Shown: positions 7,752 through 51,853 of the stretch, one piece after another | Position numbering within the stretch: the first letter of the stretch is position 1 | Layout: each line of letters opens with the position of its first letter | Origin: an uncultured virus (IMG/VR IMGVR_UViG_3300008448_000010) | Lineage: Duplodnaviria > Heunggongvirae > Uroviricota > Caudoviricetes | Strand: one strand, 5' to 3' | IMG/VR virus record: IMGVR_UViG_3300008448_000010 | DNA: 56,653 nucleotides | Translations under genes and position numbers: made by a program | Notes under the pieces: model-generated | The model's database searches: none | What the model was told of the DNA's origin: nothing | Seen by the model: the letters and a program-made list of their open reading frames with translations, nothing else

Positions 7752-9884
7752 CTAAATGATTGGGAATGTAGAATACACATAACCACCATGTTCAAAAAAC
7801 TGTCCACCATATTTTCCAAACTTAAGTTCCATTAATTTTGCTTGAACTTTTGGATCATATTTAGAAATAGATTGAGCATATTCTTCTGGTGTTATTTCTT
7901 TTGTACCTGGACTAACTTTTTTCTGAGTAGGTGTATAATTAACCAAACCTCCAGAACGTGGACCCACTTGATAATTAGGATACATTTGATTCATAGCATC
8001 TGTCTTAGCTCTATTAGTAAGTGCAGTATTATATGATTCTCTTACATTAGCTCTACCTTGTCTTTTAGCATTTTCAAACTGTTGATTAGCAATAACATTT
8101 TTATCATACAATCTGTTTGCCATCTGTTGGTTCAACATGTTTTCTTGGTTTCTTACACCAACTTGGGCTGCTTCAAACTGATTACCAATATTTACATTTT
8201 GGTTATTAGTTTGTGATGCTAAATCTGCTGCAGCAGCTGCATTTGCTCCTTGTATTGCAGATAAGTTTGCACCTTGGCCTTGAGCTCTAGCAAATTGTCC
8301 GGCAGCTTGAGAAGCAACATTAGCAGCAGCATTTATTTTTCCTTGACCACGTGTGTCATCTAAAAATGTAGGTCTAGGTTCTTCAAGATCAGCTCTTACT
8401 TCAAATGGTATATCTTTTCTAATACGTGCTAATTCTCCAACTGCACCAAAAGTATTTACTGTATCTTGTAACCACCATTCTGGATTACGTTCTGTGTTAT
8501 TTTTATATACTCCTGATCCTGGATAATCTTTAGTACAGTCATTACAGTTACCATTTGCATCTTCACCAGGATCATATGTTTTACCGGTATCCGGATCAGT
8601 ACACTCACATGGAGATTTTGAAGTTGTAGTAGTTGTAGTTATTTCAGGTGTTTCTTCTTCATTATAAAAGGCATCTTGTTTTTCTGTAAATTTCTCTTCA
8701 GCTTTAGGAATACAATCTTTAAGTAAAGCTGTTAAACCTGCCGTGGTTCCATGACCTTCTGATACAAGTTGTGCAATTGTAGCACCTTGCATTAATCTAT
8801 CACACATACTTCCTGCCCATCCTGATGATGGTCTTGATCCTCCTGGAATAGCTCTACCACCTATATAAGTTCTTTCAGCACCAGGAATACTTCTATAGTA
8901 ACCTTGAGCATTAGGACCAGCACCTGCAACAGTTCCTTTTTTATATCCAGAACCTTCTGCAGGACTCATATTTCTTTTTTGAGCAGCAATACCATTTACA
9001 GTAACACCATCTTGTGCACTATACAAACTACCACCATAAGCCATTTCATATGGATCACTAGAGTAAGGCATATCATAGCCTCCCATTTCCATTCCATAAG
9101 CTGCCATAGGAGCTTGTTGCATTTGTTGCATACCTTGTTGAGGCATTGCTACCGGTTCACCATTAGGCATTTGCATTGGCATTTCTTTCATACCTTGCAT
9201 TTCAGAATACTCACCCATTTCTTGTTCAGGCATTTCTTCTTGCTCTTCTGGTTTTTTAGGTATCAAATCTTCTTCTGAAATTCCATTTGCTTCCATATAA
9301 GGTTCAGCAATTTTAGGGATACCTTGTGGAAATGATTTTTTAGATTCTTGAGCTAAAGCTAAAGCACCTAATTTTAAAACACAAGTTTTAATCATTAACT
9401 CAGCAGTTTTTATATCTATCTTATCTGAGTTAGGATCTTGTAAAATTTGTCTGTACTTATTGATATCAAATTTCTTTGATAACTCTGCAGGAGTATAACC
9501 ACCTTTCTTAGCAGTCTTATTAAACATTTTAAGAATATGAGGATCTGAAATCTTCATAGACTTAGTATCACTGAAAATAAAACTATCATCAGGAAGATTA
9601 AGAGGTACTCCTCCATTGTAATGTCTTGGTCCTACTATTTTTTTAAATGAAGCTATGTTACTTCCATCTAAGTTACCAACTACAGTCTCTCCACCTTCAG
9701 CTTCAAGATTTGCTTCTTTTCTAGGAACAGCAGAAATAGTTTTACTAACTTTAGTATCTGGTTGTCCAATATAGGCATTGTAGTCTGCACCTCCAAAAGC
9801 AGGTACATCATTTGCTAAAGCTCCACGTACTTGGTACCCAGTTCTTGCTTTAGGAACAACTTTAATTTTAACTCTTCTTAACAT
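7752..9884 (-). CDS. Cargo protein 1-like virion protein (710 aa)
   Basis: N-terminal EAEGGETV...GPRHYNGGVP...FIFSD motif recalled from crAss-like cargo proteins; Q/N/A-rich helical C-terminal half; several xxxGG motifs. Confidence 0.65.
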   Translation of the reverse strand: MLRRVKIKVVPKARTGYQVRGALANDVPAFGGADYNAYIGQPDTKVSKTISAVPRKEANLEAEGGETVVGNLDGSNIASFKKIVGPRHYNGGVPLNLPDDSFIFSDTKSMKISDPHILKMFNKTAKKGGYTPAELSKKFDINKYRQILQDPNSDKIDIKTAELMIKTCVLKLGALALAQESKKSFPQGIPKIAEPYMEANGISEEDLIPKKPEEQEEMPEQEMGEYSEMQGMKEMPMQMPNGEPVAMPQQGMQQMQQAPMAAYGMEMGGYDMPYSSDPYEMAYGGSLYSAQDGVTVNGIAAQKRNMSPAEGSGYKKGTVAGAGPNAQGYYRSIPGAERTYIGGRAIPGGSRPSSGWAGSMCDRLMQGATIAQLVSEGHGTTAGLTALLKDCIPKAEEKFTEKQDAFYNEEETPEITTTTTTSKSPCECTDPDTGKTYDPGEDANGNCNDCTKDYPGSGVYKNNTERNPEWWLQDTVNTFGAVGELARIRKDIPFEVRADLEEPRPTFLDDTRGQGKINAAANVASQAAGQFARAQGQGANLSAIQGANAAAAADLASQTNNQNVNIGNQFEAAQVGVRNQENMLNQQMANRLYDKNVIANQQFENAKRQGRANVRESYNTALTNRAKTDAMNQMYPNYQVGPRSGGLVNYTPTQKKVSPGTKEITPEEYAQSISKYDPKVQAKLMELKFGKYGGQFFEHGGYVYSTFPII

Positions 9885-9893
9885 ATTATATAT

Positions 9894-12800
9894 TTATATA
9901 AATTCTAAATCACCACCATTAGCAAGAAATTCTTGTATTTCATCATCTGTCATGTATACTTCATCACCTTCAACATAGCCACCATCTTGATATACATCAC
10001 CACCATATTGTTTAGAACGGGAAGTATTCTTTGCTCCTTGATTAGGTGGTCTATACAATCCTGTATTAGTATCATAATCTCCTTTATCTTGAACTGTTTT
10101 AGCAGCATAAAGATTATCAGCATTATAATTTTCATACATCTTTGCTTCACTCTTTCTATCTTGAGCTCTATTTATCATTCCTGTAATACCTCTAATACCA
10201 GCATTAGCAACATTTAAATAAGCTTCTGGATCATATGAATTTTTAGTTTTAAAATCCATAGATACATCACCTTCTGTACCTGAATAAACATTTTCAGCTT
10301 GATGACTTTGACCTTGATTTGGATCTACTTTATATTCAATAGGATCTTTAGATTTATCTCTTTCAGGAGCAGGAGGATTAAAACTTGCTTGATCATTCCA
10401 AAATGAAGATTTATTTATACCTGATATACCTGGATTTAATGATATCATATCAACATCTGTCATTCCGGCCAATGCAGGATTACTTGTATAAGTTACAGGA
10501 GTTTCTGCACCAGTTTGAACATAAGGCATAAATCTTCTTAAGTCACCTCCATATTGCATTTCTGTATTTCTTGGTCCTGATGTATTAATTAATTGATCAG
10601 ATGAAAAAGGTTGAGGATTATTGGGTAAAGTTAATGAATCTTTCATATACTGCATAGGTGCAGAAAGTGGTTCTGGTTTTGCAATCCAACGGTTACTTTT
10701 CTCATCCCAAATCTTGCCTTGTTTTGTAAGCATTTCTACATTAGACATTGGAACTTTATCACTTTGTTCACTACCTATTTTATTACCATACTCATCTAAA
10801 CCTAGCATTTTAAGTTTCCAATCATTTATTTTATTTCCTAACTCTCCTTTTCTAACAGCAGCTTTAGAACCTAACTTTAATCCTTTTATATCACTCCTTT
10901 GATTATTATTAGCAGTTCTATTATCACCTTGAGTTTGAGAAGTTTGTGCACCAGAACCTGGAAGAGTAATAATATTTTGTTTTCTAGGATCCATTTCTTG
11001 ATTACCATAAGTAATAGTATACTTTTTAGGACGACCTGTAATCCAACTTGATTTTTTAACATCAATATTTTTTAAATATGTACCAGCTCCTGGTATAAAA
11101 TTTTGAACTTGCCCGGTTTGAGTATTATAAGGACCTCTTTGCATTCTTGTATATTGTCCAATAGGCATAACATTTGCAGGAAAATAATTTCTTATTGCTC
11201 TACCAATTGATCTACCAAATCTAGCCATAGGAAAATCTCCATTAGCTGTATTTTTAGAATATACATCATCTATATCTCCTTGAGAAATATCATCATATTC
11301 ATCTCCACCATATACATATTTTAAAAGCTCACCATTATATCCCATCATATCTTGTGATGTATTACCACCTTCTTGATATCCTGGAAACATGATCTTATTA
11401 ATTTGGTTTTGATCTTTACTTAATAGTGCATTTGTAAAAGCCATTGGATCTCCCAAACTATATGCAACTGGATTAACTTTTTGTGTAGTATTAGCTCCAG
11501 ATTTTTTATATAGTGTAGCTTTAGATTCTAAAGCATTAATTCTACCTGTTACATCTCCTGACTTTAACTGTTGGTATTTTTTACCAGTACCTGTTGTATC
11601 TATATACCATACACCTTCTTTCTTTTTATATAAGTTATTCTTTCCAGGATAAGTATATACACCATCAGTTAAAGTTTTCTTTTCTTTAGCTTCTGATTTA
11701 TCAGTAGGTTGTACTGTTTTTGAATTTACAGGATTAGTTTCTGTTTTACCATTAACTGTTTTAGTTTGAGTTTGTGTAGTTCCTCCTGGTTTTGTATTAC
11801 TAGCTACAGTTCCTTGAGTAGTTGTACTCACTGTAGTTACAGTTTCTGGATTAGCAGCATTTGTAGTTGCTGTAGATCCGGGAGTTTCTTTTGCTACTTC
11901 TTTTAATGCTTCTTTATTAACTGAAGTTGCATCAGTTACTACACTTCTTCTTGTAGCTGGCCATCTAACTGTTCTAGCTCCATATCCATAAGTTCCTGCA
12001 CCTTGTCCTGGCATACCCATTCCTGGCATAGGACTTCCTTGTCCAAACTCAATAGAGTATTGTCTTGGTCTACCTGTTAACCATCCTGATTTTCTTACAT
12101 CTATTTTAGTAATAGGAGGTAAACCATATCCAAAGTTAAAATCTCTTGGCATTCTTTGTCTACCAAATATACCTCCACCATCTCTAGCATGAATCATTTG
12201 ATTTTGATCTTGACTAAAGACATCACCTGCTGCCTGTGAATAAGCTGCTAAATGATGCATAGGATTCTCAAAGTCTTGCCCTTGATAGATATTTTGTTCA
12301 CCACCATTTTGTGCTACAGGGTATTGTTGAGACATTTGCTGTTGTTGCATCATCTGATCATACTGTTGTTCAGCTTGTTCTTTAGCTTGAGCAATAGCAG
12401 ATTCATTTTTAATAGACCCAATAAATTTATTTAAATTCTTTTTTCTTACACCTGAACCTGTTGGATCTGCATGGTCATCTGTAAAATCTGCAGACTTTGG
12501 ATCTTGATTATCTCCACCCATTTGTTTCTTAACAAGTTTTAAAACAGAACTTACAAATTGTTTTTTGCTTTGCTTAGAACCTCCATATTTTGCATAGTCA
12601 TCAATTACTTCTTCTGGTATTTCAGGAGTTTCAAATCCTGAGAAAGCATTGATATCTTCTTGTTCATCAGTATCATCCATTTGAGGTGGTGTCCAAGCTA
12701 TGTCAGCTGCAGCATTTGTATCACCATAATAATTTGGATTACCATAAGCATCAAACATATTTTGTGGTAAATAAGCACTTACATCAGGCATTTCAATTGG

Positions 12801-13346
12801 TACTTCCATACCTTCTTCAGCTCTATAGTATCCACCATATTGCATGATTAAATTTGATGCTGCTGCATTGTCATCATAATTTGATCCATCATCTTCTAGA
12901 ATCATTTCATTTGCCATATCTGTACCTGATTGAGATTCTGGTTCTTTTTCAGGTTGTGCAACTTCCATTACATCATTTCCAGATACTATATCTTCTGATT
13001 CTTCATCTTCATTATCTTCACTATCTATTTCTGATTGTTGTTGTTGTTCAACATAGTTATACATTTTATCTACAAATTGCATAGCTTCCATTGGTTCTTT
13101 ACCAAATACATTAACTAACTTTACAACAATTGCTTCTCTAGGTGCAGAATTTGATATATCTTGTAATACAACAGATGCTAACTGATCATCAGTAAGTTCT
13201 TGAGATTGTTGTTGAGCACCTGGATATCCCATCATACTAGAATCAGGAACTCCTCCTTCTTGTGCTCTTTGTAAAAATTGTGCAGTTTTATTTATAAATT
13301 TACCTTCACCATCTGATGATTTATAAATTCTTACTCTTTTTTTCAT
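9894..13346 (-). CDS. Low-complexity putative cargo protein with many xxxGG motifs (1150 aa)
   Basis: About 12 motifs (AQEGG, MQYGG, AQNGG, YQEGG, YQDGG etc.); internal duplication IDVRKSGWLTGRPRQYSI / IDVKKSSWITGRPKKYTI; lies in the cargo cluster. Confidence 0.6.
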   Translation of the reverse strand: MKKRVRIYKSSDGEGKFINKTAQFLQRAQEGGVPDSSMMGYPGAQQQSQELTDDQLASVVLQDISNSAPREAIVVKLVNVFGKEPMEAMQFVDKMYNYVEQQQQSEIDSEDNEDEESEDIVSGNDVMEVAQPEKEPESQSGTDMANEMILEDDGSNYDDNAAASNLIMQYGGYYRAEEGMEVPIEMPDVSAYLPQNMFDAYGNPNYYGDTNAAADIAWTPPQMDDTDEQEDINAFSGFETPEIPEEVIDDYAKYGGSKQSKKQFVSSVLKLVKKQMGGDNQDPKSADFTDDHADPTGSGVRKKNLNKFIGSIKNESAIAQAKEQAEQQYDQMMQQQQMSQQYPVAQNGGEQNIYQGQDFENPMHHLAAYSQAAGDVFSQDQNQMIHARDGGGIFGRQRMPRDFNFGYGLPPITKIDVRKSGWLTGRPRQYSIEFGQGSPMPGMGMPGQGAGTYGYGARTVRWPATRRSVVTDATSVNKEALKEVAKETPGSTATTNAANPETVTTVSTTTQGTVASNTKPGGTTQTQTKTVNGKTETNPVNSKTVQPTDKSEAKEKKTLTDGVYTYPGKNNLYKKKEGVWYIDTTGTGKKYQQLKSGDVTGRINALESKATLYKKSGANTTQKVNPVAYSLGDPMAFTNALLSKDQNQINKIMFPGYQEGGNTSQDMMGYNGELLKYVYGGDEYDDISQGDIDDVYSKNTANGDFPMARFGRSIGRAIRNYFPANVMPIGQYTRMQRGPYNTQTGQVQNFIPGAGTYLKNIDVKKSSWITGRPKKYTITYGNQEMDPRKQNIITLPGSGAQTSQTQGDNRTANNNQRSDIKGLKLGSKAAVRKGELGNKINDWKLKMLGLDEYGNKIGSEQSDKVPMSNVEMLTKQGKIWDEKSNRWIAKPEPLSAPMQYMKDSLTLPNNPQPFSSDQLINTSGPRNTEMQYGGDLRRFMPYVQTGAETPVTYTSNPALAGMTDVDMISLNPGISGINKSSFWNDQASFNPPAPERDKSKDPIEYKVDPNQGQSHQAENVYSGTEGDVSMDFKTKNSYDPEAYLNVANAGIRGITGMINRAQDRKSEAKMYENYNADNLYAAKTVQDKGDYDTNTGLYRPPNQGAKNTSRSKQYGGDVYQDGGYVEGDEVYMTDDEIQEFLANGGDLEFI

Positions 13347-13361: not shown

Positions 13362-13406
13362 TAAATATAATAAATTTTAATTTATTCAGTAAACTTATAA
13401 AGTTTA
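13362..13406 (-). promoter_or_regulatory. Putative promoter TTTA-N20-TATATTTA with palindrome TAAACTT-ATA-AAGTTTA
   Basis: Boxes at 13362-13369 and 13390-13393, inverted repeat 13390-13406; same layout as the 7704-7748 site. Confidence 0.6.
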
Positions 13407-16400
13407 ATTGAGTTCTTCTATCACATAACCTTGTGCTATTAAATCTTTTATTTCTTTTGGAGTTAATTCTGCATCTACATAATCATTACTTGCTCCACCT
13501 TGTTTTTTTTCTTTAAGAGCTTTTTGAATATATGGATTTTTTAATACTACATTATCTCTTAAATCTACAATCTGTTTTCCATATAATGGATTCTTACGCA
13601 TGTTTATACCACCAGCAGGAATAGGAACACCATATATTTTTTGCATTTTAAAGCCATGATAATCTTCTTCTGTTTCAGGTGTTACAGTTCCTAGACCATT
13701 ATAGTATTGTATTTGTAATAATTCATTATCTATTTTAGCTCTTTTAGCTTCATTTAATTTCTGTTTATAAAAGTCAATATAACCATAAGGATATGCTGTA
13801 TCACCATATAAAGCATGGCCTAAGTTAGCATCTTTTTTTCCAAAATTTGTTTCTTGAAGAGCAATAGCTAACATAGTACTTGGATCAACTCCTACAGCTT
13901 TTGATTTTTTAATTATATTATCTATTACAACTTTATTATACTTGTCAGCTTTTAAATCAACATTTGGATTTATTTTTTCACCTGTAGTTGCTCTTATTGT
14001 TCTTGTATCTTTAAGGTCAACAAATTCTTTTGGAAAATTAATTTCTTTGTGTAATTTAATTAAGTGGTCTCTTCTTTTTTTATTAAGACTAGAAACTGTT
14101 ACTGCATTTTTATTTAATTCTTTAGTTCTAGAACCATTAGGATCTTCAATAGAAACAAATCTATTACCTGTTGATTTATTACTAATTGACCATCTTCCAT
14201 TAAGACTTTTTTTATAAAGAGAATCTGGTCTTCCAAGATATTTATATGTTTCACCATTACTTTGATTATCACCACCATCTTGGTAATTATCTATTTCTTC
14301 TACTACATAACCACCTTCTTTATATCTTTGTACTTCTTCTGATGTTAGATCTAATTCTACATAATCATTAGATGTGCCACCTTGTTTTTTTTGTTGTAAT
14401 GTTTCTGCTCCTATTATTACTGGTACAGTTCCAAGAGCATATTTATTCATTGTTTTTAATAAACCTTTTTTATCATTTAAAGCTCCTAACATTTTAGACA
14501 TTGTATTATCTAATCCTGTATCTTTTACATAATTTTTAATAGCATCATCTAATTGTACTTGTGTAATTTTAAAATCTTGATTTAAAGGAATTCCATTTTT
14601 TTGTGCAATATAATCTTTTAACTGAGCAGCTCTTTCTCTAATTTCATTAGCATAATTAGCTGATCTATTTTTACCTCTTAAATAAGTTTTAGTTTTATAA
14701 CTTTCTAATTTATTTAAATTAAATGGTTTTAACCACTCTGCACCTTCAGCAGGACTATTAGAATAATAATGTCCAGTTTCATGTGCAGCAATTCTTGCTT
14801 TATTAGCTTCATTTAAAGGAATACCACTTAAATTAGCATCTTTACTTACTTCTGTAGCTGTTCTACCCATTGTATTTGATCCTAATTTTTCTCCTGGATA
14901 ATCAGAAGCAGGATTATGTCTTTCTACAGCAGTAGATAATCTTTGTTCTAATTCTGGAGTTAATTGTTCATTCCAACCTGGTTTATTTTTTTGAGAAATT
15001 AATCTTTCAGCTCTTGCAGCTATAGCTTCTTCTTGTGTTAAATATTTAGAAAAATCTACATTAGGAGAACCTGGTAATTGTTTATAAAGTTTTTGTTCTT
15101 CAAAAGGTATTACAAATTCTCTATCAGGAGCCCTACTTAAAGATTTATCATATTGACTATATTGTTCTAACTTAGATTTTGGGATTTTTAAATGTATTAT
15201 TTCAGGATTTGTAAATTCTCTATCAGCTTTATAAAAATCAAAATCATTTTTATCTTTTGTAAACCATTGACCAAAATATTTTTCTTCTTCTGCTTTTTTA
15301 GCTAAGGTTGCTGGATTGTTAAATAAAGGATTTATTTTTCTTTCTTCAGCAAGTTGTGCAAATGTTTTTCCATTCTTTTCTTGTATTCTCCATAAATCAA
15401 CTAATTCATCTACATTACTAGTTATACCTGCATTAGGAGAACCTGGTAATTGTTTTGGAACTTCTTTATATCCTTTTAACCAATGTTTTTTATAAAATTT
15501 TGTATTTTCACCTAAAGATATATTTGGTAATTTTTCAACAATATCTTTCCCTGCCCACTTCTGTCCTGTATATCTAATTGGTTGAAAAACACTTTCATCT
15601 CCCCGTCCTGCAAGTTTTGAAAAAGTTCTTGCTCTCATAGGTTGATTTGTAACTTCTGTAATTACATTAGGTTCATATTGTTTTATACCTTCAAAGTTTT
15701 TTCCACTAAAAAAATAAGGAGAATCACCAGGAGAATCAGTCCAATTTGGATTTCTATTTGTTCTTAATACTCCAGACTCTATAGCATCTTTATATCCAGC
15801 TTCTCCAATCCCTCTATAATAAGCTTCTGGATTAGGTTTAAATGCCCAAGGATTAATTTTATATGTATTATTAATTAAATTTTTAGAACCTTTTATAGCT
15901 TTACCAAAAGGTAAGCCAACAAAGTTTAATGAGTTCATACCCACATCCCAAGCAGCATCACCTATATTACTACCTGTAGGATCATCATAAGCTCTACTCA
16001 TACTTTTTCTAGTAAGACTATTTGGATCACTAAATTCTTTTATTCCATGATATCCAAAATATGCATTTAATCCACCAGCAATTTCAGGAACAGCTAATGT
16101 TGCTCCTATAGCAGGAGCCATTATTGTATAAGCAGGAGCTAAAGGAGCTCCTGTTGCTACAGCTTGTGCTACTTTGGATACATTATTTGGATTATCCATC
16201 CATCTAGTTCTACCCATCTCATCAGGTTTTCCATACCAAGAATCTTCTAATTTTACTTGATCTTCTTCAGTTGTTTTAGTAGCTTCTCTATCATATGATT
16301 TACCAAAGTTATCATAGAAATCCATAAAAGTAGCATCTGAAATTTTTCCTTCTTTATATAAATTTCTTAAATCATCAACTCCTGTAGAATTTAATACATC

Positions 16401-18107
16401 TGATACTTTAGCTTTTTTATAACTTTCAGGATTATATTTTTTTAATACATTCAAAGCCTTAGATGCTTTATCATAAGATTTTTTTTCTTCATTTAATTCT
16501 TTCTTATAAGATTGAATTTGATCTTTTAAAGAAATAATTGAAGAAGTTCCTTCTGCACTTTGTTTTTGTTTTTCTAATCCTAAATTAACTCTATGATCAT
16601 TATAAGCTTTTTTTACTTGCTTTAACCTATCTATTAATGAACCTTGAAGTTTTCTTTTTTCTTGGTTTCCATAAACAGTTACTTCATTTAGATCTTGTAC
16701 TTTGTTAGGTAGATTTTCATTTTCACCACCATCTTGCATCTGATTTAATGAAGGTATAGAAATATCTTCTACTACATAGCCACCTTTTCTATATTCTTCT
16801 ATCTCATCTTCATCAAGATCAACTTCGATGTAATTAGCAGGACCTTCTGTATTTCTTAAGAAAGATTGTTCTTCTGGTTCTATAAGAGATTCATTATAAG
16901 TAGCAATGTTTCTACCGTATACATTAGTAATAGGTCTGTATCCAATTTTTCTATCTTCATCTACAGCATGCTGAAATGTATCATGAACAGGAGACTTTAA
17001 ATACTCTCCTGTGTTAGCATTAATACTGTATGCATGATAATAACCATCCTTTTCTTTAGGTTGATCATAGTTAAACTCTGATGGTCTTCCTTCTGAATCC
17101 CAATATCCTCTTATATCATATTCTGGATCATCTTGCATTAAGTTATCAGGAAGAGTAGGATAAAACTTTTGAAATTTTTGTTCATCTTCTGTAGATAATT
17201 TAGTTATACCATTTTGAGCATGTACTAATCCTTGACCACCACACTCATGACATGTAGTAATATCCTTACCACCATCTGCAGCATCCCATTTCCAACCACA
17301 CTTTTTACATGTTACTTTCTTAGTAAGCAAAGAACCACCTTCTGCATACTGATTCATTCCTGTTGCATTTTTATAACCTTCAGAAGAAATATAATCAGCA
17401 TATTGATTAGGAACTTGGATAGCTTCATCATTAGGATTCATTATAGTAGGGTACATCCAAGCTTGACCATTATCATCTTCACCCCATGCCATTTTGTGTG
17501 ACATGTTTTGACCAAACTGTTCATCATCGGGTAGATTAAACATTGGTGTTCCTGGATTATCTCCTAATGCAAAAGCTCTATCTACAAAATCAACTCCTCT
17601 ATTTCTTTCCATTAGTACTTTAGAAATAAGATCTCCCTCTAATTTACTTATACCACCATCTTGATAGTACTTAGCATTAGGATCAAATACTTTATTCTTT
17701 CTAGACTTAGGTTTTGCAAATAAATAATTTTGTGTAAAAAATTTGTTAGTTGCATCTAAACTTCTAGAATAACTTTTAGACAGTAAACCTTTTTTACTTG
17801 GTTTTGGCATTGATACAAGACCTTTTGTTCTACCTCCTTTTCTCATCTGAGGAAATTCATCTACATAGTCTGCTCCTGGAAACTGATAGTTTTGATCAGG
17901 ATACATCATTTGTGGTTGACCTACATTAGGTTGAGCATATACAGGATATGGTACTCCTTGCATAGTAATATCTCCACCAGGTATTCTAGTGTTTTGTCCA
18001 GGATGCTCCCATTGACCTTTTGGATCATAGATTATATCTTTATGAAAAGGATTAGGTTTTGTATAACTACCTAAATCTATTTTGGATAAAACTTTTTTAT
18101 TTAACAT
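13404..18107 (-). CDS. Polyvalent multi-domain cargo protein (1567 aa): Zn ribbon, two ART-like modules, zincin HExxH, lytic transglycosylase-like domain
   Basis: CKKC...CHEC; YYRGIG...SGVLR...PYF; LWRIQ...GQWFT...FY...EFVIP; IAAHETGH...NEIRERAAQ; GVDPSTMLAIALQETNFG...YYNG. Confidence 0.65.
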   Translation of the reverse strand: MLNKKVLSKIDLGSYTKPNPFHKDIIYDPKGQWEHPGQNTRIPGGDITMQGVPYPVYAQPNVGQPQMMYPDQNYQFPGADYVDEFPQMRKGGRTKGLVSMPKPSKKGLLSKSYSRSLDATNKFFTQNYLFAKPKSRKNKVFDPNAKYYQDGGISKLEGDLISKVLMERNRGVDFVDRAFALGDNPGTPMFNLPDDEQFGQNMSHKMAWGEDDNGQAWMYPTIMNPNDEAIQVPNQYADYISSEGYKNATGMNQYAEGGSLLTKKVTCKKCGWKWDAADGGKDITTCHECGGQGLVHAQNGITKLSTEDEQKFQKFYPTLPDNLMQDDPEYDIRGYWDSEGRPSEFNYDQPKEKDGYYHAYSINANTGEYLKSPVHDTFQHAVDEDRKIGYRPITNVYGRNIATYNESLIEPEEQSFLRNTEGPANYIEVDLDEDEIEEYRKGGYVVEDISIPSLNQMQDGGENENLPNKVQDLNEVTVYGNQEKRKLQGSLIDRLKQVKKAYNDHRVNLGLEKQKQSAEGTSSIISLKDQIQSYKKELNEEKKSYDKASKALNVLKKYNPESYKKAKVSDVLNSTGVDDLRNLYKEGKISDATFMDFYDNFGKSYDREATKTTEEDQVKLEDSWYGKPDEMGRTRWMDNPNNVSKVAQAVATGAPLAPAYTIMAPAIGATLAVPEIAGGLNAYFGYHGIKEFSDPNSLTRKSMSRAYDDPTGSNIGDAAWDVGMNSLNFVGLPFGKAIKGSKNLINNTYKINPWAFKPNPEAYYRGIGEAGYKDAIESGVLRTNRNPNWTDSPGDSPYFFSGKNFEGIKQYEPNVITEVTNQPMRARTFSKLAGRGDESVFQPIRYTGQKWAGKDIVEKLPNISLGENTKFYKKHWLKGYKEVPKQLPGSPNAGITSNVDELVDLWRIQEKNGKTFAQLAEERKINPLFNNPATLAKKAEEEKYFGQWFTKDKNDFDFYKADREFTNPEIIHLKIPKSKLEQYSQYDKSLSRAPDREFVIPFEEQKLYKQLPGSPNVDFSKYLTQEEAIAARAERLISQKNKPGWNEQLTPELEQRLSTAVERHNPASDYPGEKLGSNTMGRTATEVSKDANLSGIPLNEANKARIAAHETGHYYSNSPAEGAEWLKPFNLNKLESYKTKTYLRGKNRSANYANEIRERAAQLKDYIAQKNGIPLNQDFKITQVQLDDAIKNYVKDTGLDNTMSKMLGALNDKKGLLKTMNKYALGTVPVIIGAETLQQKKQGGTSNDYVELDLTSEEVQRYKEGGYVVEEIDNYQDGGDNQSNGETYKYLGRPDSLYKKSLNGRWSISNKSTGNRFVSIEDPNGSRTKELNKNAVTVSSLNKKRRDHLIKLHKEINFPKEFVDLKDTRTIRATTGEKINPNVDLKADKYNKVVIDNIIKKSKAVGVDPSTMLAIALQETNFGKKDANLGHALYGDTAYPYGYIDFYKQKLNEAKRAKIDNELLQIQYYNGLGTVTPETEEDYHGFKMQKIYGVPIPAGGINMRKNPLYGKQIVDLRDNVVLKNPYIQKALKEKKQGGASNDYVDAELTPKEIKDLIAQGYVIEELN
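13474..14392. repeat. Imperfect 37-bp direct repeat pair (13474-13510, 14356-14392) encoding KKQGG(A/T)SNDYV
   Basis: tctacataatcatta-N6-ccaccttgtttttttt at both sites, flanking the lysozyme-like cassette. Confidence 0.8.
15059..15455. repeat. Perfect 25-bp direct repeat pair (15059-15083, 15431-15455) encoding KQLPGSPN
   Basis: cattaggagaacctggtaattgttt occurs twice, 372 bp apart (in frame), flanking the second ART-like module. Confidence 0.9.
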
Positions 18108-29424: not shown

Positions 29425-30669
29425 TTAACAAGGATTAGATGATATAGTTAAACCTACTTGTGAAAATTGTCTTTCATCACATATAAAACTTTTATTAGAA
29501 CTTCCACCTACTGTTGTTACATATTCAATAGAAGAAAGATCTACAAAATTTTTATTTGTTCCATCCCATGCCTCTATACCCATTTCTGATGCAACATTAT
29601 CAATTCTATTTGCATAACCAGTATTTGTAGACGTGCGCGCAGCAAAAACTAATCCTATAATTTTTCTAACTCCTCCAAAATCAGCAATTAATGCTGAACC
29701 TGAATCACCACCTATAATAGGATTAGGACATAAAACACTTAAACTAGGATCATTTTCAGGTTTAACAAATTCAAGTTGATCTTGAAAATTTACAGTAGTG
29801 TACGTACCTTGTTTTTTATATTGTATTGGAAAAGCAGAAAATATAGATTGTATTCTCATTGGACATGATGCACCACCTTTAGGACCTGTACTTCTTCCTG
29901 AACTATAAATCATAGGATTAGTTGTAAGTAAATTATTTATTTCTGCAGTAGTTGCAAAAGGTAAAGGATTAGTATATGCAACACCAGCTTGCATTACTGA
30001 AGATGATATTGTTCCTGTAGCTATATCACTTTGATTTATAGAAAAAATACCACAATCTACTTTATTATAGCCAGCTTGTTGTATAGGAACATATCTTAAT
30101 GATCTTCCAATTTCATAATTTAGTGGTGGAGGATAAAATTCTCCATTTTGATATACCTTATTTATTGGAAAATATTCATTTTGATATACTCCATTTATTA
30201 AACTTCTATCTGATGTATAAAAAGCATCTTGTATTAAAACGTGATTATTTGTTACACCAACTAAAGCTTGAGTATTAGTATCAACAGCAATAAAACCAAG
30301 TGTACCTACAAAACCAGGCAAATTAGATATTTGCATTGACAAACCTCCAACTAAGGGTCTTGTAAATGCTCTGTTTACTGCTGAGTTTGGACCCATAAAT
30401 TCACCACAATATGCATTACAAGCTAATAACTCTACTTTACCTGCTTCAAATACATCAGTTTTTAAAACTTGATCTTCTACTGTAATTGAATTAGGAATAA
30501 TTTCAGAATCTAAAAGTTCAGAAATTGGTTTTTTTTGGTCTACACCAAATCTAATACATAACTCATCTGTTTGAACATTTCCAACAAATTTATATCCATA
30601 TGAAATACTGTTTGCATTAAAAGCATTTTGTTCTGCTAATTCCTGAATTTTTAATTTAATATCTTCCAT
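29425..30669 (-). CDS. Trypsin-like (S1, Nal1-like) serine protease
   Basis: Triad motifs VTNNHV (His), KVDCGI (Asp), GGDSGS (Ser); also GTLG, GRSTG, IIGLVFA; N-terminal GYKF...TDELCIRFGV..KKP segment. Confidence 0.85.
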   Translation of the reverse strand: MEDIKLKIQELAEQNAFNANSISYGYKFVGNVQTDELCIRFGVDQKKPISELLDSEIIPNSITVEDQVLKTDVFEAGKVELLACNAYCGEFMGPNSAVNRAFTRPLVGGLSMQISNLPGFVGTLGFIAVDTNTQALVGVTNNHVLIQDAFYTSDRSLINGVYQNEYFPINKVYQNGEFYPPPLNYEIGRSLRYVPIQQAGYNKVDCGIFSINQSDIATGTISSSVMQAGVAYTNPLPFATTAEINNLLTTNPMIYSSGRSTGPKGGASCPMRIQSIFSAFPIQYKKQGTYTTVNFQDQLEFVKPENDPSLSVLCPNPIIGGDSGSALIADFGGVRKIIGLVFAARTSTNTGYANRIDNVASEMGIEAWDGTNKNFVDLSSIEYVTTVGGSSNKSFICDERQFSQVGLTISSNPC

Positions 30670-35889: not shown

Positions 35890-36405
35890 TTATTTTAAAA
35901 AAAGTAGCTTGTATTTAGTTGAGTTAATAGAATCTTTAACTAAATCTAAATTATTAACAATCTCAGAGTATGGCATCATACCTTGTAGTTTATTAATTGA
36001 GTTGTATAAATCTCTAAGATATCCAACACCATCTGCTACTGTATCTAAAGTTCTAATTGGCATATCAGTATAACTTATAATTTTTTCTGCTACACCTTGG
36101 TATCCTTCTACTAGTGTATCAGCATGATCATGAAGTCCTGCATAAAATTCTCCAAGAGCTTTATGTGCTGCAAAAGAACCATCTCCTGTAACTTTTAAAT
36201 GAAGCTTATGAAAACTAATAGCTGCATTCATCATTTCTGTTGCACATGCTGATGTCATTGTATCTAATGAACTACCACCAACTCCAGTATTAGGAGTAGG
36301 TTGTGGTATAGCTGGTTCTTCTTTTGATTGAGTAACAGTAAGTTGAGGTCTACTAATAGTTTTTACAGGTTCAGGATTTCTTTTTAATAATCTAGTTTTT
36401 TCCAT
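35890..36405 (-). CDS. Ferritin-like / Dps-like protein (DUF5856-like)
   Basis: FHKLHLKVTG..SFAAHKALGEFY..L.DHADTLVE matches the Dps HW...G..F...H...E.Y......D.LAE pattern. Confidence 0.8.
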   Translation of the reverse strand: MEKTRLLKRNPEPVKTISRPQLTVTQSKEEPAIPQPTPNTGVGGSSLDTMTSACATEMMNAAISFHKLHLKVTGDGSFAAHKALGEFYAGLHDHADTLVEGYQGVAEKIISYTDMPIRTLDTVADGVGYLRDLYNSINKLQGMMPYSEIVNNLDLVKDSINSTKYKLLFLK

Positions 36406-36419: not shown

Positions 36420-37118
36420 TTAATTATTTCTTTCAGCACTTTCTGTACCTCTTGCATACTGGTTTCCTGATTCAATGTCTCCAGCTAATACAGCAACTGC
36501 TTCATCTATTATAACTTCAATTATATCATCTTTAAATTCACATTGAATATTAGTAGGTGATGCTACTCCTGTATATGGGTCAACACATCCTTGAACTTGA
36601 ATTTTTACAGGTTGTCTGTAATAAATTATATCAGCATCCTGTACTTCAAAATCTTTATTTGTGTAAATATGTACATTATTATTAATTAATGTAGCAAAGG
36701 TTTCTCCCCACTCAAAACTTGGTTGTTTAGATTTATCTCTTAAAAGTTGATTAAGATTTCCTTCTTCAGCAAAATAAACTGTCATTCTTCTTTTTTCACA
36801 ACAATCTTTTTTTGCTAGTACATCAACTCTTTTCCATTGCATATAATCTTCAGGAAGCAATGCTTTATAATAATAATCTTTAGGATTAATAGTTAAAGAT
36901 TGAGAATTTAATAATACTTGTAAGTCATCTTTTCTTCTGGTAGATTGTTCATCTCCTTCTTTAAGAATATTAATTCCATGCAGTTGTCTTCTTGACCATT
37001 CTACTTGAGCCTTATTAAATGCTTCTACAACAGCCCAACACTCAATATTATCATAATCTTGAGAATCTAATTTATTTAAACGTTGTTTAACTTTTATAAT
37101 TAAAGTTGAATTAAGCAT
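36420..37118 (-). CDS. Head-tail adaptor / ring protein
   Basis: RLNKLDSQDY...FNKAQ...EQSTRRKDDLQVL...YYRQP...CEF; conserved crAss-like structural gene downstream of the capsid gene. Confidence 0.7.
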   Translation of the reverse strand: MLNSTLIIKVKQRLNKLDSQDYDNIECWAVVEAFNKAQVEWSRRQLHGINILKEGDEQSTRRKDDLQVLLNSQSLTINPKDYYYKALLPEDYMQWKRVDVLAKKDCCEKRRMTVYFAEEGNLNQLLRDKSKQPSFEWGETFATLINNNVHIYTNKDFEVQDADIIYYRQPVKIQVQGCVDPYTGVASPTNIQCEFKDDIIEVIIDEAVAVLAGDIESGNQYARGTESAERNN

Positions 37119-37581
37119 ATTCTAAATATTTAATTGCATTTTTAAGAGTTTCTATTTCATCATTTACAAAACCTAATAAAGAATTACATTTATAACATAA
37201 TAACCCTCTTACTTTACCTGAAATATGACAATGATCTACAGCAAAATATGTATTTCTACCATGTTTAATTTCTGTTTCTGAAATTTTACATATTCCACAT
37301 TGACTATTTTGTAAAATTAACATCCTGTTATACTCCTCTAATGTAATATTGTATCTTTTTTTATAATAAATTTCTCTGTTTGCTTCTTTTCTTTTTTTAT
37401 TAAGCTCTCTTCTTTTTTGTTTAAAATCTTCTGTTTTGCTACTTTCTTTTATTCTTGCTTTTATTTTTTCTTTATTTAATTCATAATACTTTTTAGTATA
37501 AACTTTTAATTTTTCCTCTTTAGTTAAACTATTAGAGATTGAATTATCTTTTATCTTTATGGTAAGTACACTATTTTGCAT
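37111..37581 (-). CDS. Endonuclease VII-family free-standing homing endonuclease
   Basis: YNITLEEY..ML..QNSQCGIC...AVDHCH.SGKVRGLLCYKCN..LG...D...LKNAIKYL. Confidence 0.9.
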   Translation of the reverse strand: MQNSVLTIKIKDNSISNSLTKEEKLKVYTKKYYELNKEKIKARIKESSKTEDFKQKRRELNKKRKEANREIYYKKRYNITLEEYNRMLILQNSQCGICKISETEIKHGRNTYFAVDHCHISGKVRGLLCYKCNSLLGFVNDEIETLKNAIKYLEYA

Positions 37582-37733: not shown

Positions 37734-38105
37734 CTATTTCTTTTTAGCATTCTTTTTAGCACCAACAATTCTATCAGCAAAAGTTGCTTTATTATATGGA
37801 GGAGCTAATGCTGCAAATTTAGTTGTTTTAGTAGAACCTCCAGAACCAAACTGAAGTGGTCTTGCTTTTACACATCTACCATCTTCACCTCTTACCATAC
37901 CATTCTTACAAGAAGCTTGTACTGCACGGCTTACTGAACCACCTGATTTCATAGAAGATGGACCTGTTTGTCCAGCACCTATAAAGTAAGGTATACCTGC
38001 AGCAAATGGTTTTTTAGGAGGACCTAAGATTGGAGTTTTACTTGGCATACCACCTTTAGCCATTTTCTTCATTGAGCCACCGCAGCTCATACATTTTGTT
38101 TTCAT
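37734..38105 (-). CDS. Small basic protein with xxxGG motifs
   Basis: MSCGG, MAKGG, MKSGG, FGSGG; C-terminal FAALAPPYNKATFADRI. Confidence 0.7.
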   Translation of the reverse strand: MKTKCMSCGGSMKKMAKGGMPSKTPILGPPKKPFAAGIPYFIGAGQTGPSSMKSGGSVSRAVQASCKNGMVRGEDGRCVKARPLQFGSGGSTKTTKFAALAPPYNKATFADRIVGAKKNAKKK

Positions 38106-38124: not shown

Positions 38125-38397
38125 TTAACAATTCCATTTTCTTAAAGAAAGAGCTTTTCTTGTAGGTCTGCCTTTTTCATCTTTCATAGGTCCAGGCATC
38201 CCTGACATTCTAGCACAAAAACTTTTTCTTCTCTTTGCTGCTTTGCCATTTGGATCTAACTTAGATGGCTTAGTAGTGACTGCCATCTTAAGTTTAGATC
38301 CCGGATTAGCTGCTCTATAACTGGCTACTCCCTTTGCATTTAAACCTCCGGTTTTATTCTTACCTTCTTTTCTTGTCCAAGCTGCTGTCTTTGCCAT
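38125..38397 (-). CDS. Small basic phage protein (DUF6321-like)
   Basis: AWTRKEGKN..GGLNAKG...RRKSFCARM...SLRKWNC, a pattern recalled from aquatic phages. Confidence 0.75.
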   Translation of the reverse strand: MAKTAAWTRKEGKNKTGGLNAKGVASYRAANPGSKLKMAVTTKPSKLDPNGKAAKRRKSFCARMSGMPGPMKDEKGRPTRKALSLRKWNC

Positions 38398-38399: not shown

Positions 38400-38738
38400 C
38401 TATGCTTTTTTTACTCTTCTTCCCATACCTACTCTAGACTTTTCAGCTTTCTTAGCAGCTAGTTTAGAAGGAGTTAATTCATACTTTGTTTTAGGAGTAT
38501 CCTTTGATACTCTTTTTGTAGGCCGGCAGTATTCATTAGAACCACCGGCACCACAAGCTTTACCTGATTTAGTATCCTGCCATTTTTCTGCTTGCCATCT
38601 TTTAAGGTTTGCACCAGCTTTAGTTTTTCTAACTACACCTGAACCTTTCCTACATTTAGCAATTGCTTGAGAAGCCCTTGCTGAAGGAAACACAGCATAC
38701 TGTGCTTTTACTTTACTATAGCAGGCATCTTTAGGCAC
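38400..38738 (-). CDS. Small basic phage protein (DUF5872-like)
   Basis: KDACYSKVK..Y.VFPSA.AS.AI.KCRK...LKRW..EKW...CRP.KRVSK.TPKT. Confidence 0.7.
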   Translation of the reverse strand: MPKDACYSKVKAQYAVFPSARASQAIAKCRKGSGVVRKTKAGANLKRWQAEKWQDTKSGKACGAGGSNEYCRPTKRVSKDTPKTKYELTPSKLAAKKAEKSRVGMGRRVKKA

Positions 38739-38740: not shown

Positions 38741-38953
38741 TTAACAGCTTTTACCTTTCATGCTTCCACCCATTTTAGCTTTAGGTATTGCAGTTTTTGG
38801 AGCAGAAGATGTTCCACCTACTTTACCTTTAGCAACTTTTGATGCTGCAGCTTTTGGGTTAACACCTGATTTAACACCTTTAGAACCTGGAGTTTTTTGA
38901 ACTGGTGTATTACCATTCAATTTTACAATTACTCCTTTACTTGCTTTTTTCAT
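38741..38953 (-). CDS. Small Lys-rich protein (start reassigned to ATG 38953)
   Basis: MKKASKG...AKMGGSMKGKSC; the ATG sits just after the upstream stop codon. Confidence 0.65.
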   Translation of the reverse strand: MKKASKGVIVKLNGNTPVQKTPGSKGVKSGVNPKAAASKVAKGKVGGTSSAPKTAIPKAKMGGSMKGKSC

Positions 38954-38954
38954 T

Positions 38955-39677
38955 TTATTTTTTTTTAGTTTTAATAATACCACCTTTTTTCTTTTTCTCT
39001 GGAGACTTAACTCCTGCTAATTCAGTAGGACCTGTACTTGATACTTTCATATCAGTTGCTTTTACTGTTTCCATTTTTGCTGGTGGTTGATTTTCTTTAT
39101 CAAATGAACCAGATTTTAATTTTGCAAGTAATGCTAAATTAGCTTTCATTGAACCATCTGTTAAACCTTGCTTCTTAGCTTCAGACCAAGAGGTTCCAGT
39201 TTTTTCTTTCCATATTTCAGATACTGTTTTACCAGCAGGTGTTTTTACAACTGAAGTCTTAACTGGAGTTTTTACAGAAGAACTATTTTTACCTAAATTA
39301 GGTTCAATTTTTATTTTTGAATTTGTTATAGAAACTTTTGCACTTCCTACAGGTTTATATTGTGTAGTTGCTTTTGGTTTAACAGTAGTCTTTTTAGGAT
39401 TATCTCTAGTTATACCTTCAATTACAGCTTTAACTTTTTTACCAGATGCTACTTTTGCAGCAGCTCTTTTAGCAGCATCAGCTTTAGCAACTTTAGCAGC
39501 AGCATCAGCTTTTTGTTTTTTAGCTAATTCAGTATTATAATTAAAACCTGATTCAATAATTTTTTTTGGATTGAGTTTTGTATTTATTGCACTGGTTCCT
39601 TTTACTGTACTAATCAGTTTAGATCCACCTTTTTGCATTTTTTTAACACCACCATATTGCATTTTCTTTGCTTTCAT
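38955..39677 (-). CDS. Lys/Ala-rich histone-like basic protein
   Basis: MQYGG, MQKGG and KKKGG motifs; AAAKVAKADAAKR and KTPVKT tracts. Confidence 0.65.
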   Translation of the reverse strand: MKAKKMQYGGVKKMQKGGSKLISTVKGTSAINTKLNPKKIIESGFNYNTELAKKQKADAAAKVAKADAAKRAAAKVASGKKVKAVIEGITRDNPKKTTVKPKATTQYKPVGSAKVSITNSKIKIEPNLGKNSSSVKTPVKTSVVKTPAGKTVSEIWKEKTGTSWSEAKKQGLTDGSMKANLALLAKLKSGSFDKENQPPAKMETVKATDMKVSSTGPTELAGVKSPEKKKKGGIIKTKKK

Positions 39678-39689: not shown

Positions 39690-40706
39690 TTAAGAGTTCC
39701 AATACTTCTCAACAGATTGTGTTAAGTCTTTTAAAATATCCTCATTTAAAGGATTTTTTAAGTACTCTACTACATCTGCCACATTTCTTCCTAACAAAGA
39801 GTTAGTTTTAGTATGATAGATATAACCATCTGCCTTATTAACAATATACTTAAAAAAAACGGAATCTCTTACAATAGATTTAATTTTTAATGCTTCCATG
39901 TCTAAATTAGCAGTTTCAACAAAAGATTTAGCTGCACGTTCCATATTACTTTCTCCACCTAAACCATTAATATAATTATCCATGTTTTCATAGATAACAT
40001 CATTAGGTGTTGACTTTTTATATTGTGTACTATTTATATCCACAACTTTTGCAATGTAGAATAACTTAGTACTGTTTTTATCAAATAATTTCTGAAGTTC
40101 AGAAAGTGCTTTGTTACGCAACTTCTTATATTCAGTTCTTACCATTACAGTTTCTTCTGTTTTATCTAAGTAAAACTTAGGAGCAACTGGTCTTGATCTT
40201 GCATCATCATAACTTTTTGCTACCAATGAAAACCCTCCTGCTTCAATTCCATGTAATTTAATTCTATCATATGGATCTTTTGGATCTAAGAATACAGGTT
40301 CATTTCCACAAGCTAAAGTTATTTTATTCCAAAAATCAGAATTATCTGGTTTAAGTAATTTTACTTTATTCCAAAATTGTGGATCATCAAGTTCAATTAC
40401 ATTTGCAGCTAATTCTTTTTCTAATTCACATACTGCAGATCTAATTTCTCTTATCCTTGCAGATTTGTCATCCTCATTTAATAATTTAATATCTGGAGCA
40501 AATTCATTTAGACCTGTTAAGTATCTAACTACTCCATTATTTTCTAAGCATGCTAATTGTTCATGATGAGTTACCCCATCAAATAAAGACATACCATAAT
40601 CTTCTAAGCCCATATTAGAAGCACTTGAATCAAAGAAAGGTCTTACAGCTATTGGTGTTATTTTAACTGTACCCCTTCCGGTTTCTACCATTGTGAAATT
40701 TTCCAT
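39690..40706 (-). CDS. Conserved crAss-like protein downstream of the major capsid gene
   Basis: YLTGL.E...FW....L....VFLDPKDPYD...APKFYL; conserved position. Confidence 0.65.
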   Translation of the reverse strand: MENFTMVETGRGTVKITPIAVRPFFDSSASNMGLEDYGMSLFDGVTHHEQLACLENNGVVRYLTGLNEFAPDIKLLNEDDKSARIREIRSAVCELEKELAANVIELDDPQFWNKVKLLKPDNSDFWNKITLACGNEPVFLDPKDPYDRIKLHGIEAGGFSLVAKSYDDARSRPVAPKFYLDKTEETVMVRTEYKKLRNKALSELQKLFDKNSTKLFYIAKVVDINSTQYKKSTPNDVIYENMDNYINGLGGESNMERAAKSFVETANLDMEALKIKSIVRDSVFFKYIVNKADGYIYHTKTNSLLGRNVADVVEYLKNPLNEDILKDLTQSVEKYWNS

Positions 40707-51124: not shown

Positions 51125-51430
51125 TTATTCTCTTTTTAGTTTTCTTTCTCTTACTGGGTTTTCATTAGCACCTTCTTTTTTAGTATATCTTTCTTCTGTT
51201 TCAAATTCTTCAGGATGTTGCATTTGATACATTTGCATAGAATACTGAGTATCATACTGAAATCTTTTATATTTAAATTCTGATATTTCAGCTAATAATT
51301 TTTCATACTTATGTTGTGCTTCTAAAAAAGGAACAGCTTCTTCAAAAAATTCTTTCATTTCTTCTTTTCTAGCAACTAATTGTTCAGGAGATAAAGCTTC
51401 CATTTCTTCCTGTTGATTTACATTTTCCAT
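51125..51430 (-). CDS. Hypothetical coiled-coil protein
   Basis: E/K/Q-rich 101 aa; first gene after a terminator and promoter. Confidence 0.65.
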   Translation of the reverse strand: MENVNQQEEMEALSPEQLVARKEEMKEFFEEAVPFLEAQHKYEKLLAEISEFKYKRFQYDTQYSMQMYQMQHPEEFETEERYTKKEGANENPVRERKLKRE

Positions 51431-51453
51431 TGTTTATATTTTTAAAGTTTAAA

Positions 51454-51461
51454 CAAATATA
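51454..51461 (-). promoter_or_regulatory. Bacteroidota-type -7 box TATATTTG flanked by AAGTTTA half-sites
   Basis: Exact TAnnTTTG match on the minus strand; aagttta near 51445 and 51468; no clear -33 box. Confidence 0.5.
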
Positions 51462-51492
51462 CTATAAAAGTTTAAATAAAAAATATTTAAAC

Positions 51493-51526
51493 AAAAAAAA
51501 TCCAGATAAATTAAATTACCTGGATT
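51493..51526 (-). terminator. Rho-independent terminator
   Basis: AATCCAGGTAA-TTTAAT-TTATCTGGATT followed by a T run on the minus strand. Confidence 0.75.
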
Positions 51527-51547
51527 ATTATAGCTTAAATAAGAGTT

Positions 51548-51853
51548 TTATTTTTTAGTTTTAATAATCCCTCCTTTTTTTTGTTTTTTCTTAAACATGT
51601 TACTTACAGTTTTATTTGTAAGTTCTGCAATACCTAAACCTACTGCACCTGCTCCTGCTGCTATTTTAGCACCAAGACCTAATTTTTCTCCAGCACTTCT
51701 AACTCTAAATGTTTTAGTTTTTCCACATTTAGGTCTTCTTCTACGTTTTGGCCAACCATCTACAATAACAGTCTCCATACAAGGATCATCAGATGAACCT
51801 CCTGTTTCATAACTTTTCATAGATCTAATCATTTGATTTTTACTATCTTTCAT
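51548..51853 (-). CDS. Small basic protein with xxxGG motifs and a hydrophobic segment
   Basis: YETGG, QKKGG; LGLGAKIAAGAGAVGLGIA; ends KKGGIIKTKK like the 240-aa protein. Confidence 0.65.
   Translation of the reverse strand: MKDSKNQMIRSMKSYETGGSSDDPCMETVIVDGWPKRRRRPKCGKTKTFRVRSAGEKLGLGAKIAAGAGAVGLGIAELTNKTVSNMFKKKQKKGGIIKTKK

Follow-up and report, generated by a model that had tools for sequence, protein, structure and literature searches.

A recurring Gly-Gly peptide tag on C1-type cargo and small basic proteins of a crAss-like phage: a possible head-assembly signal

We analyzed a stretch of 56,653 nucleotides from an uncultured virus (IMG/VR IMGVR_UViG_3300008448_000010; hereafter the window), in which a short peptide ending in Gly-Gly recurs in large proteins encoded after the muzzle gene and in small basic proteins. 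The window represents the structural module of a crAss-like phage, with all genes on the minus strand. Its Crassvirales-like type is evident from the usual order of its capsid, ring, muzzle, portal, and terminase genes, all of crAss type, and is supported by matches to PF23898, PF24228, and PF25702 and to portal-, terminase-, and muzzle-type PHROGs. The genes run from terminase, portal, putative scaffold, and capsid (PF23898) through an array of small basic genes, the tail genes, and the rings (PF24228, PF25702) to the muzzle, followed by open reading frames (ORFs) of 1567, 1150, 710, 978, and >1585 amino acids (aa). The original prediction had proposed that the peptide is either a site for a maturation protease or a docking signal for the capsid interior. 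Two patterns were used in the analysis, [MYAFK]xxGG, taken from that prediction, and the strict pattern [YFMAK][AQKE][EDKYQMN]GG, picked on the window. The genes concerned are the following.

13404..18107, minus strand: 1567-aa modular cargo-type protein, 10 pattern copies, 8 strict
9894..13346, minus strand: 1150-aa cargo-type protein rich in Gln, Gly, and acidic residues, 11 pattern copies, 9 strict
7752..9884, minus strand: 710-aa C1-like cargo protein, tags at residues 28-32, 265-269, 281-285, and 690-701
4746..7682, minus strand: 978-aa protein in the C2 position (C2 identity by gene order only), tag-free, the negative control
51548..51853, minus strand: basic protein of 101 aa, upstream of the terminase module, tagged close to either end by YETGG and QKKGG
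38955..39677, minus strand: 240-aa basic protein, two N-terminal tags and one C-terminal tag
38741..38983, minus strand: basic protein of about 70-80 aa, C-terminal tag AKMGG
38400..38738, minus strand: free DUF5872 basic module, untagged
38125..38397, minus strand: free DUF6321 basic module, untagged
37734..38105, minus strand: 123-aa basic protein, four pattern copies, two of them within the first 19 residues

A scan of the window with [MYAFK]xxGG returned 35 copies in seven named ORFs, in agreement with a manual count of about 35 in the same seven. The manual estimates per protein (about 4, 12, 9, and 10 for the 710-aa, 1150-aa, 1567-aa, and small basic proteins) proved only approximate, the scan giving 5, 11, 10, and 4 + 1 + 3 + 1. 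Composition was controlled with 1000 shuffles per ORF. The 1150-aa and 1567-aa proteins exceeded expectation in every case (11 versus 2.62 and 10 versus 2.64, 0/1000 shuffles each), as did, less sharply, the 123-aa and 240-aa basic proteins (4 versus 0.92 and 3 versus 0.55, 11/1000 each); enrichment in the 710-aa protein was weak (5 versus 1.95, 41/1000), and the single copies in the basic ORFs at 38741 and 51548 were individually not significant against shuffles. As predicted, the motif was rare in the terminase (0), the 978-aa ORF (0), the capsid (1 versus 1.05), and the muzzle (3 versus 2.25), all at chance level. Plain GG was close to composition in the three large proteins (11 versus 6.9, 14 versus 10.5, and 14 versus 9.6) and thus not clearly enriched, which places the signal in the three residues preceding GG. 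The enriched form is [YFMAK]-[AQKE]-x-G-G. Some of the counted copies sit within small conserved modules and not in linkers, namely the GG of a 27-residue module (end of the 1150-aa protein, interior of the 1567-aa protein) and a CxxC module at residues 259-300 of the 1567-aa protein.

The strict pattern matched 25 times in 6 of the 46 window ORFs. Since it had been chosen on the window, this count is circular, and the pattern was therefore tested in other genomes, namely six related records that are 82-100% complete, were scanned as 20-kb pieces, and are not independent of one another. There, 106 of the 110 matches fell in cargo-type and small basic ORFs: 20 cargo-type ORFs held 68 matches versus 4.3 expected and 51 small basic array ORFs held 38 versus 3.0, compared with 1 versus 5.7 in 25 C2-like or giant ORFs and 3 versus 9.5 in the 659 others. 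Enrichment over composition in this genome and its relatives, which the original prediction had offered as a check, is thus seen for the cargo-type ORFs and, apart from the two single-copy ORFs of the window, for the small basic ones. The relatives also define the tag more closely. A hydrophobic residue stands three positions before GG ([MYF]xxGG, 121 versus 20.0 expected), and the single-Gly form A-Q-x-G is enriched as well (30 versus 8.3), indicating that the first Gly matters most. Tandem copies lie 7-9 residues apart, and tags are kept while the intervening sequence varies severalfold in length. Among 150 representatives of the C1-domain family of the 710-aa protein, we counted 264 strict matches versus 37.6 expected, distributed over 120 of the 150 proteins.

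The cultured phage crAss001 shows the same confinement. Its C1 protein, gp45, has four strict matches versus 0.41 expected, and none was found in 18 other crAss001 proteins tested. A relaxed pattern, widened after gp45 had been viewed, gave eight distinct sites in gp45, none in gp46, gp49, and gp50, and one in gp47, which is at chance. The gp45 tags flank both sides of short basic modules. The tag marks the C1 family and the small basic proteins and not every cargo; C2-like and RNA-polymerase-type giants are without it.

The 710-aa protein is connected to C1 by predicted structure.

9285..9752, minus strand: folded domain, residues 45-200 of the 710-aa protein, resembling the portal-bound C1 domain by structure match
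9789..9803, minus strand: PAFGG tag directly upstream of the C1-like domain

Behind a basic N-terminal leader (R-V-K-I-K), the AlphaFold2 (AF2) model reaches predicted local distance difference test (pLDDT) values of about 90-97 from residue 51. By three structure routes, this compact domain matches the portal-bound domain of crAss001 C1. A VIA search placed 7qog_M at rank 2 (middling Z of 5.2, root-mean-square deviation (rmsd) 3.9, 95 residues aligned), the row that, among the matches listed, reaches furthest into the beta part of the domain; BFVD returned a phi4:1 structural protein (E 7e-5) along with four proteins annotated as C1; and ESM Atlas led to PF25725 with a score of 0.93. No link between this domain and gp45/C1 was detected at the sequence level (hhalign probability 1.6%, no Pfam match), and tblastn of the 710-aa protein against annotated phages gave no match. 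We infer the virion location of the window's proteins from such homologues. The Gly pair of the PAFGG tag, G31-G32, is invariant in 16/16 sequences yet disordered in the AF2 model, as expected of a linear motif. Within the domain, E61, E63, E66, H88, and S105 are invariant in 88 sequences (window 9600-9710, minus strand) and possibly form a binding, metal, or catalytic site. The idea that these Glu, His, and Ser residues make the domain an autoprotease found no counterpart, there being no protease among the folds listed.

The two larger cargo-type proteins are modular, and the tags follow their joints. The 1567-aa protein has relatives of 363 to >2300 aa and consists of a conserved N-domain ending at YQDGG 152, the CxxC module, an HExxH motif at 1109, and a lysozyme-like stretch at about 1397-1437 (a weak match, E 0.004, below the cut-off); most modules of the protein gave no assignment. 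Aligned with 15 related first-cargo proteins, it gave 52 distinct internal BLAST ends, 19 of them no more than 8 residues away from a motif, versus 6.6 by circular shift (106/10000), which lends moderate support to the original claim that the motifs lie at its domain boundaries. The same protein contains two copies of another seam peptide, QLPGSP (residues 886 and 1010; window 15078-15460, minus strand), between enzyme-like modules. The 1150-aa protein, which is fused to the C1-like protein in some relatives, ends in a separate module.

9897..9977, minus strand: 27-residue C-terminal module of the 1150-aa protein, M-T-x-E-E...F-L-A-N-G-G, with tandem tags just before it

This module is present in 7/7 free 1150-type proteins and in 0/150 C1-domain proteins, including eight natural 1150+710 fusions, whose junctions also lack the basic N-terminal leader of the 710 type (window 9850-9884); the 1567-aa protein has related modules both internally and at its end. 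The pattern suggests that the module and the leader may form a head-to-tail docking pair that chains cargo non-covalently.

That module ends cluster at the motif would also be expected if the tag had no binding partner and were a flexible GG hinge or a recombination seam whose DNA is copied during module shuffling. The Gly codons of the tags do favor GGT (42/56 versus 169/308 elsewhere, p=0.005; for example, the tags at 9978-10013), which hints at copied tag DNA. Against this origin, GG is encoded by six different dicodons across 28 copies, the residues before GG are selected, tags stand at termini where they join nothing, and G31-G32 is invariant within a disordered stretch. We consider a hinge or seam unlikely.

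The closest functional parallel emerged from the basic module DUF6321. A survey of 80 viral loci, 74 of them matching the anchor, yielded 72 distinct upstream junctions, classed as 29 start-Met, 25 Glu, 11 GG, and 7 other; one row of the Met class and one of the Glu class are really MAEGG junctions, which leaves 24 Glu and 13 GG. In all 24 Glu junctions, the position two residues ahead of the Glu is occupied by L, I, M, V, or F (L or I in 17), and this hydrophobic-x-Glu lies 3-4 residues before a conserved Trp. The 11 GG junctions read [MYFL]-K-x-G-G and end exactly four residues before the same Trp, in the register of many Glu sites. In phage T4, according to passages of PMC9026906, gp21 cuts after L/I-x-E, and a 10-residue capsid targeting sequence (CTS) both targets and is cut. 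Both grammars also appear as short N-terminal leaders (loci L086 and L090 versus L115 and L129), and in L089 a DUF5872-like stretch, spotted by eye, shares a T4-type polyprotein with DUF6321. The two classes keep apart: the 24 Glu-type loci hold the GG tag no more often than chance predicts (4 versus 5.6 expected), against 41 versus 4.5 in the 14 GG-type loci, junctions included. Peptidase_S77, the T4-type prohead protease, was found in one Glu-type record, the one larger record of that class, which has S-SSM7 as a named T4-like example. It was found in 0/14 GG-type records, three of which are at least 90% complete, and in none of the 46 window ORFs. At the homologous junction, the window and its crAss-like relatives use x-x-x-G-G and not the T4 L/I-x-E site, and share with T4 a short signal on basic internal modules, placed as leader or joint.

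Among the GG-type records, G049 is crAss-like too, and G051-G053 and G055 represent other, smaller phage types. In G053 (L147:789-10004) and G055 (L149), non-crAss phages of 48-56 kb, putative ejection proteins mostly end in a GG tag plus 1-15 residues; in G051 (L160), several unrelated small ORFs start with an 11-17-residue basic leader ending in Y-x-x-G-G. HTVC115P gp72 (L063:6293-7300), a 335-aa protein encoded between portal and capsid, combines several x-A-x-G-G tags with a tape-measure-like domain and is preceded by a 45-aa basic GG protein. A short domain in the G053 cargo matches tape-measure proteins (8zdo_S, E 1.3e-6). Alignment did not link this type of domain to the C1 domain of the window, and hhalign of the C1 domain with lambda gpH gave 0.3%. 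Caulobacter phage RW has a tape-measure-like domain with one tag, but the genes that follow are without terminal tags, so the G053 pattern is not general. Leptolyngbya phage Lbo-JY46 (L057/L061, PP438436.1), the best capsid match among annotated phages (28.6% over 99%), has a crAss-like gene order and GG tags, despite its listed cyanobacterial host.

On our best reading, the motif is real, selected, and cargo-specific, and acts as a functional analogue of the T4 CTS/gp21 system without being a member of it. The claim of a selected, cargo-specific signal has thus gained from its confinement in other genomes, from gp45, and from the swap with T4-type Glu sites; the choice offered with it, cut site or docking signal, could not be separated by the data, and both may hold, as in T4. 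The tag stands where T4-type phages place a pack-and-cut signal, and therefore probably serves to label cargo for loading; it may be cut as well. We assign a probability of roughly 0.45 to a head-assembly signal that targets cargo and is partially cut. Its observed basis consists of the presence, confinement, and conservation of the tag, its position at module joints, its exchange with Glu sites, and the C1 kinship; binding and cutting are what we infer. The signal would read (basic residues)-[M/Y/F/A/K]-[Q/K/A/E]-x-G-G and would stand at either terminus or where exchangeable modules are joined. As the prohead assembles, the tag would be bound by a phage component that draws C1-family cargo and the small basic, probably DNA-binding, proteins into the head. 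At least some internal copies would then be cut, so that C1-family chains become separate pieces.

Data on crAss001 C1 bear on the cutting step. Passages of PMC10172136 give two resolved C1 segments, residues 214-245 in the tail and 425-552 on the portal, about 420 Å apart. Both are bounded by tags, one to either side of the portal, and all four C1 mass spectrometry peptides named in those passages stay clear of the tags. We also matched published matrix-assisted laser desorption/ionization (MALDI) peak lists of 13 crAss001 gel bands, as given in the part of PMC6235969 covered here, to the crAss001 proteins. Eleven bands were clear (muzzle, gp47 with gp50, gp49, portal (6/38 peptides), gp26, gp22, gp25, gp23, capsid, and gp36), band 13 gave one gp29 peptide, and band 10 had no assignment. 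gp45, a 90.9-kDa protein with 12 copies by cryo-electron microscopy, was never in the top four of any of the 13 bands and had only 0-5 scattered matches.

These data can also be read in favor of an uncut docking handle, a tag that would bind the portal, the scaffold, the capsid wall, or a C1 domain and tether cargo by avidity, the chains being ejected whole. AFGG lies within the resolved C1 range, and no cognate protease was found. In G053, a GG peptide stands 1-13 residues before the end of 6 of 7 consecutive ORFs, and such extreme C-terminal tags are more in keeping with a handle than with a cut. The spacing of tandem copies by 7-9 residues fits as well, as does a related short domain found alongside the tag in G053, G055, HTVC115P, and tape-measure proteins. 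A handle does not account for the in-register exchange with a class of sites known to be cut, nor for tags on both sides of the gp45 basic modules, and gp45 was not seen at full length, a weak point. An uncut handle is possible, albeit doubtful.

If copies are cut, an enzyme is required, and the window encodes one obvious candidate.

29425..30669, minus strand: trypsin-like (S1) protease, among the tail genes

This S1 protease, suggested earlier as a partner of the tag, is not co-distributed with it: it occurs in 1/14 tag-bearing records (1/9 near-complete ones), is absent from the nearest record, and was rejected as the cognate enzyme. Cleavage of GG|X sites by a clan CE cysteine protease, as in adenovirus, African swine fever virus (ASFV), and mavirus, where such sites are real according to passages of PMC6048507, or by the S1 enzyme of the window is very improbable. 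The adenovirus register [MIL]xGG is not enriched (23 versus 24.7 expected in relatives, 3 versus 4.0 in the window), the hydrophobic residue of the tag being one position further from GG. Peptidase_C48 (PF02902) was found in 0/14 records, although a very diverged enzyme is possible, and no clan CE family appeared among 126 of the 127 ORFs of the complete G003 (the one omitted is a capsid fragment) or in a Pfam scan of the window. The adenovirus and ASFV analogy of the original prediction consequently fails in register and in enzyme. The zincin motif of the 1567-aa protein was discarded as the protease, a single one of the 15 first-cargo relatives having it. The conserved 338-aa gp33-like protein (window 39690-40706, minus strand) follows the capsid gene and is present in six GG-type records and in no Glu-type record. 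It comprises a small helical bundle and then a RecA C-terminal-like domain (its last 70 residues match with Z 10.3, rmsd 1.7, 62 aligned). As a hidden protease it was set aside, no protease fold being listed, with the N-terminal part poorly modelled and barely tested. S1 protease and endonuclease VII genes (29425-30669 and 37111-37581, the latter likewise on the minus strand) are sporadic, each with a homologue in 1/6 relatives. A ferritin/Dps-like DUF5856 gene (window 35890-36405, minus strand) is kept in the structural module of 6/6 relatives and in G049, G053, and G055.

The only peptidase-like motif conserved across crAss-like relatives is a gp47-type HExxH zincin, Y-H-E-A-[WF]-H, present in the giant cargo ORF of 6/6 relatives and in crAss001 gp47. 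It marks a candidate enzyme and no more than that; a gene of this type would lie beyond the left end of the window. Passages of a phi14:2 preprint (10.1101/2020.03.07.982082) suggest that the zincin domain acts in polymerase activation. Together with this suggestion, the conservation of the motif and the intact tag in the virion model would fit cleavage only after ejection, with a host peptidase or the co-injected zincin freeing effector modules. We regard this as quite improbable: the tag occurs in seemingly unrelated phage types without the zincin motif, terminal tags would release nothing useful, and polymerase-type giants, which possibly need processing, are untagged.

Several observations weigh against a head-assembly signal with partial cutting. 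The tag NAFGG at 424-428 overlaps the range 425-552 stated as resolved in passages of PMC10172136, of which the deposited C1 chain has 126/128 residues, and argues that this copy is intact; in the same passages, C1 is taken by the authors to be a single chain. Two proteins of the 56-kb phage G053 have just one residue beyond GG, and cutting there would achieve little. No shared protease emerged from the tag-bearing records (C48 0/14, S77 0/14, S1 1/14), and G053 and G055 gave no match to the zincin motif. The gel test carries little weight, because gp46 was not convincingly seen either, bands are mixtures, and the pairing of bands with masses is presumed. With regard to loading, gp46, gp47, gp49, and gp50 are packaged in crAss001 according to passages of PMC10172136; C2 and polymerase-type cargo thus enters untagged, and some cargo can do without the tag. 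The window's own free DUF6321 and DUF5872 genes are untagged as well. With regard to the T4 comparison, register alone does not prove cutting, since any fused tag must precede the N-terminus of the module; the 13 GG junctions represent few independent events; and 23 of the 24 Glu-type records are only 1-42% complete, too partial to reveal a protease.

A broader and more tentative proposal, which we hold to be rather unlikely, is a pack-and-cut code based on Gly-Gly, parallel to that of T4 and used by crAss-like and other short-tailed phages. Any module could then be loaded into the head, and a virion protease, for which the gp47-type zincin would be a candidate, would cut. If so, the pieces of crAss001 C1 seen in the tail and on the portal would be separate chains from one polyprotein, the current ejection model would change, and the signal family could extend to the so far unexplained cut in lambda gpH.

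Crassviruses load megadaltons of protein into the head, yet the literature searched mentions neither a targeting signal nor a maturation protease for them. That literature, with most subscription papers outside its reach, contained no description of the motif. It is not described in the passages of PMC5512222, PMC10136315, PMC5694885, and PMC6048507 covered; neither motif nor cleavage is described in those of a Xanthomonas phage preprint (10.64898/2026.02.16.706137) and the Douge paper (PMC13033339), or mentioned in those of PMC10172136, whose searched text passages and review file lack the strings "cleav" and "proteol". In gp45 of the cultured phage crAss001, the tag singles out exact residues, and the expectation is either new termini or a portable label for packaging. 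Such a label, if real, would make it possible to deliver proteins to Bacteroidota hosts, much as the T4 CTS is used in E. coli, and the tag would annotate many tiny basic "hypothetical" phage genes as internal head proteins.

The tag can be placed among known systems, here compared through passages of the papers cited. Like the substrates of adenain, ASFV pS273R, and the mavirus enzyme (PMC6048507), it combines Gly-Gly with an upstream hydrophobic residue on virion precursors; it differs in the more distant position of that residue and in the lack of any clan CE protease found. Polyvalent proteins (PMC5512222) are strings of exchangeable enzyme modules, with a zincin proposed to process them, which the 1567-aa protein may resemble; the passages covered describe no GG junction, and the zincin motif of the 1567-aa protein is restricted to 1/15 relatives. 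Lambda gpH loses a piece of about 14 kDa in a glycine-rich region, with site and enzyme unknown (PMC12617516), and carries FATGG, YATGG, and MRDGG near its C-terminus. The fit to the tag is imperfect, in that GG at 710-721 would give 13.8-14.5 kDa and FATGG 12.2 kDa. With crAss001 C1 gp45 (PMC10172136, PF25725, 7QOG), the window shares the portal-bound fold, the gene position after the muzzle, and tags flanking basic modules; one gene in crAss001 corresponds to three in the window plus free basic genes, and the domain elements are reordered. Compared with the T4 CTS (IPI-IPIII, Alt) and gp21 (PMC9026906, PMC5694885), the tag has Gly-Gly instead of Glu, is also found C-terminally, and occurs in records without Peptidase_S77. 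The two systems have in common a short peptide on basic internal proteins, placed as leader or joint and with redundant sites, and the same basic modules (DUF6321) bear either signal in the same register.

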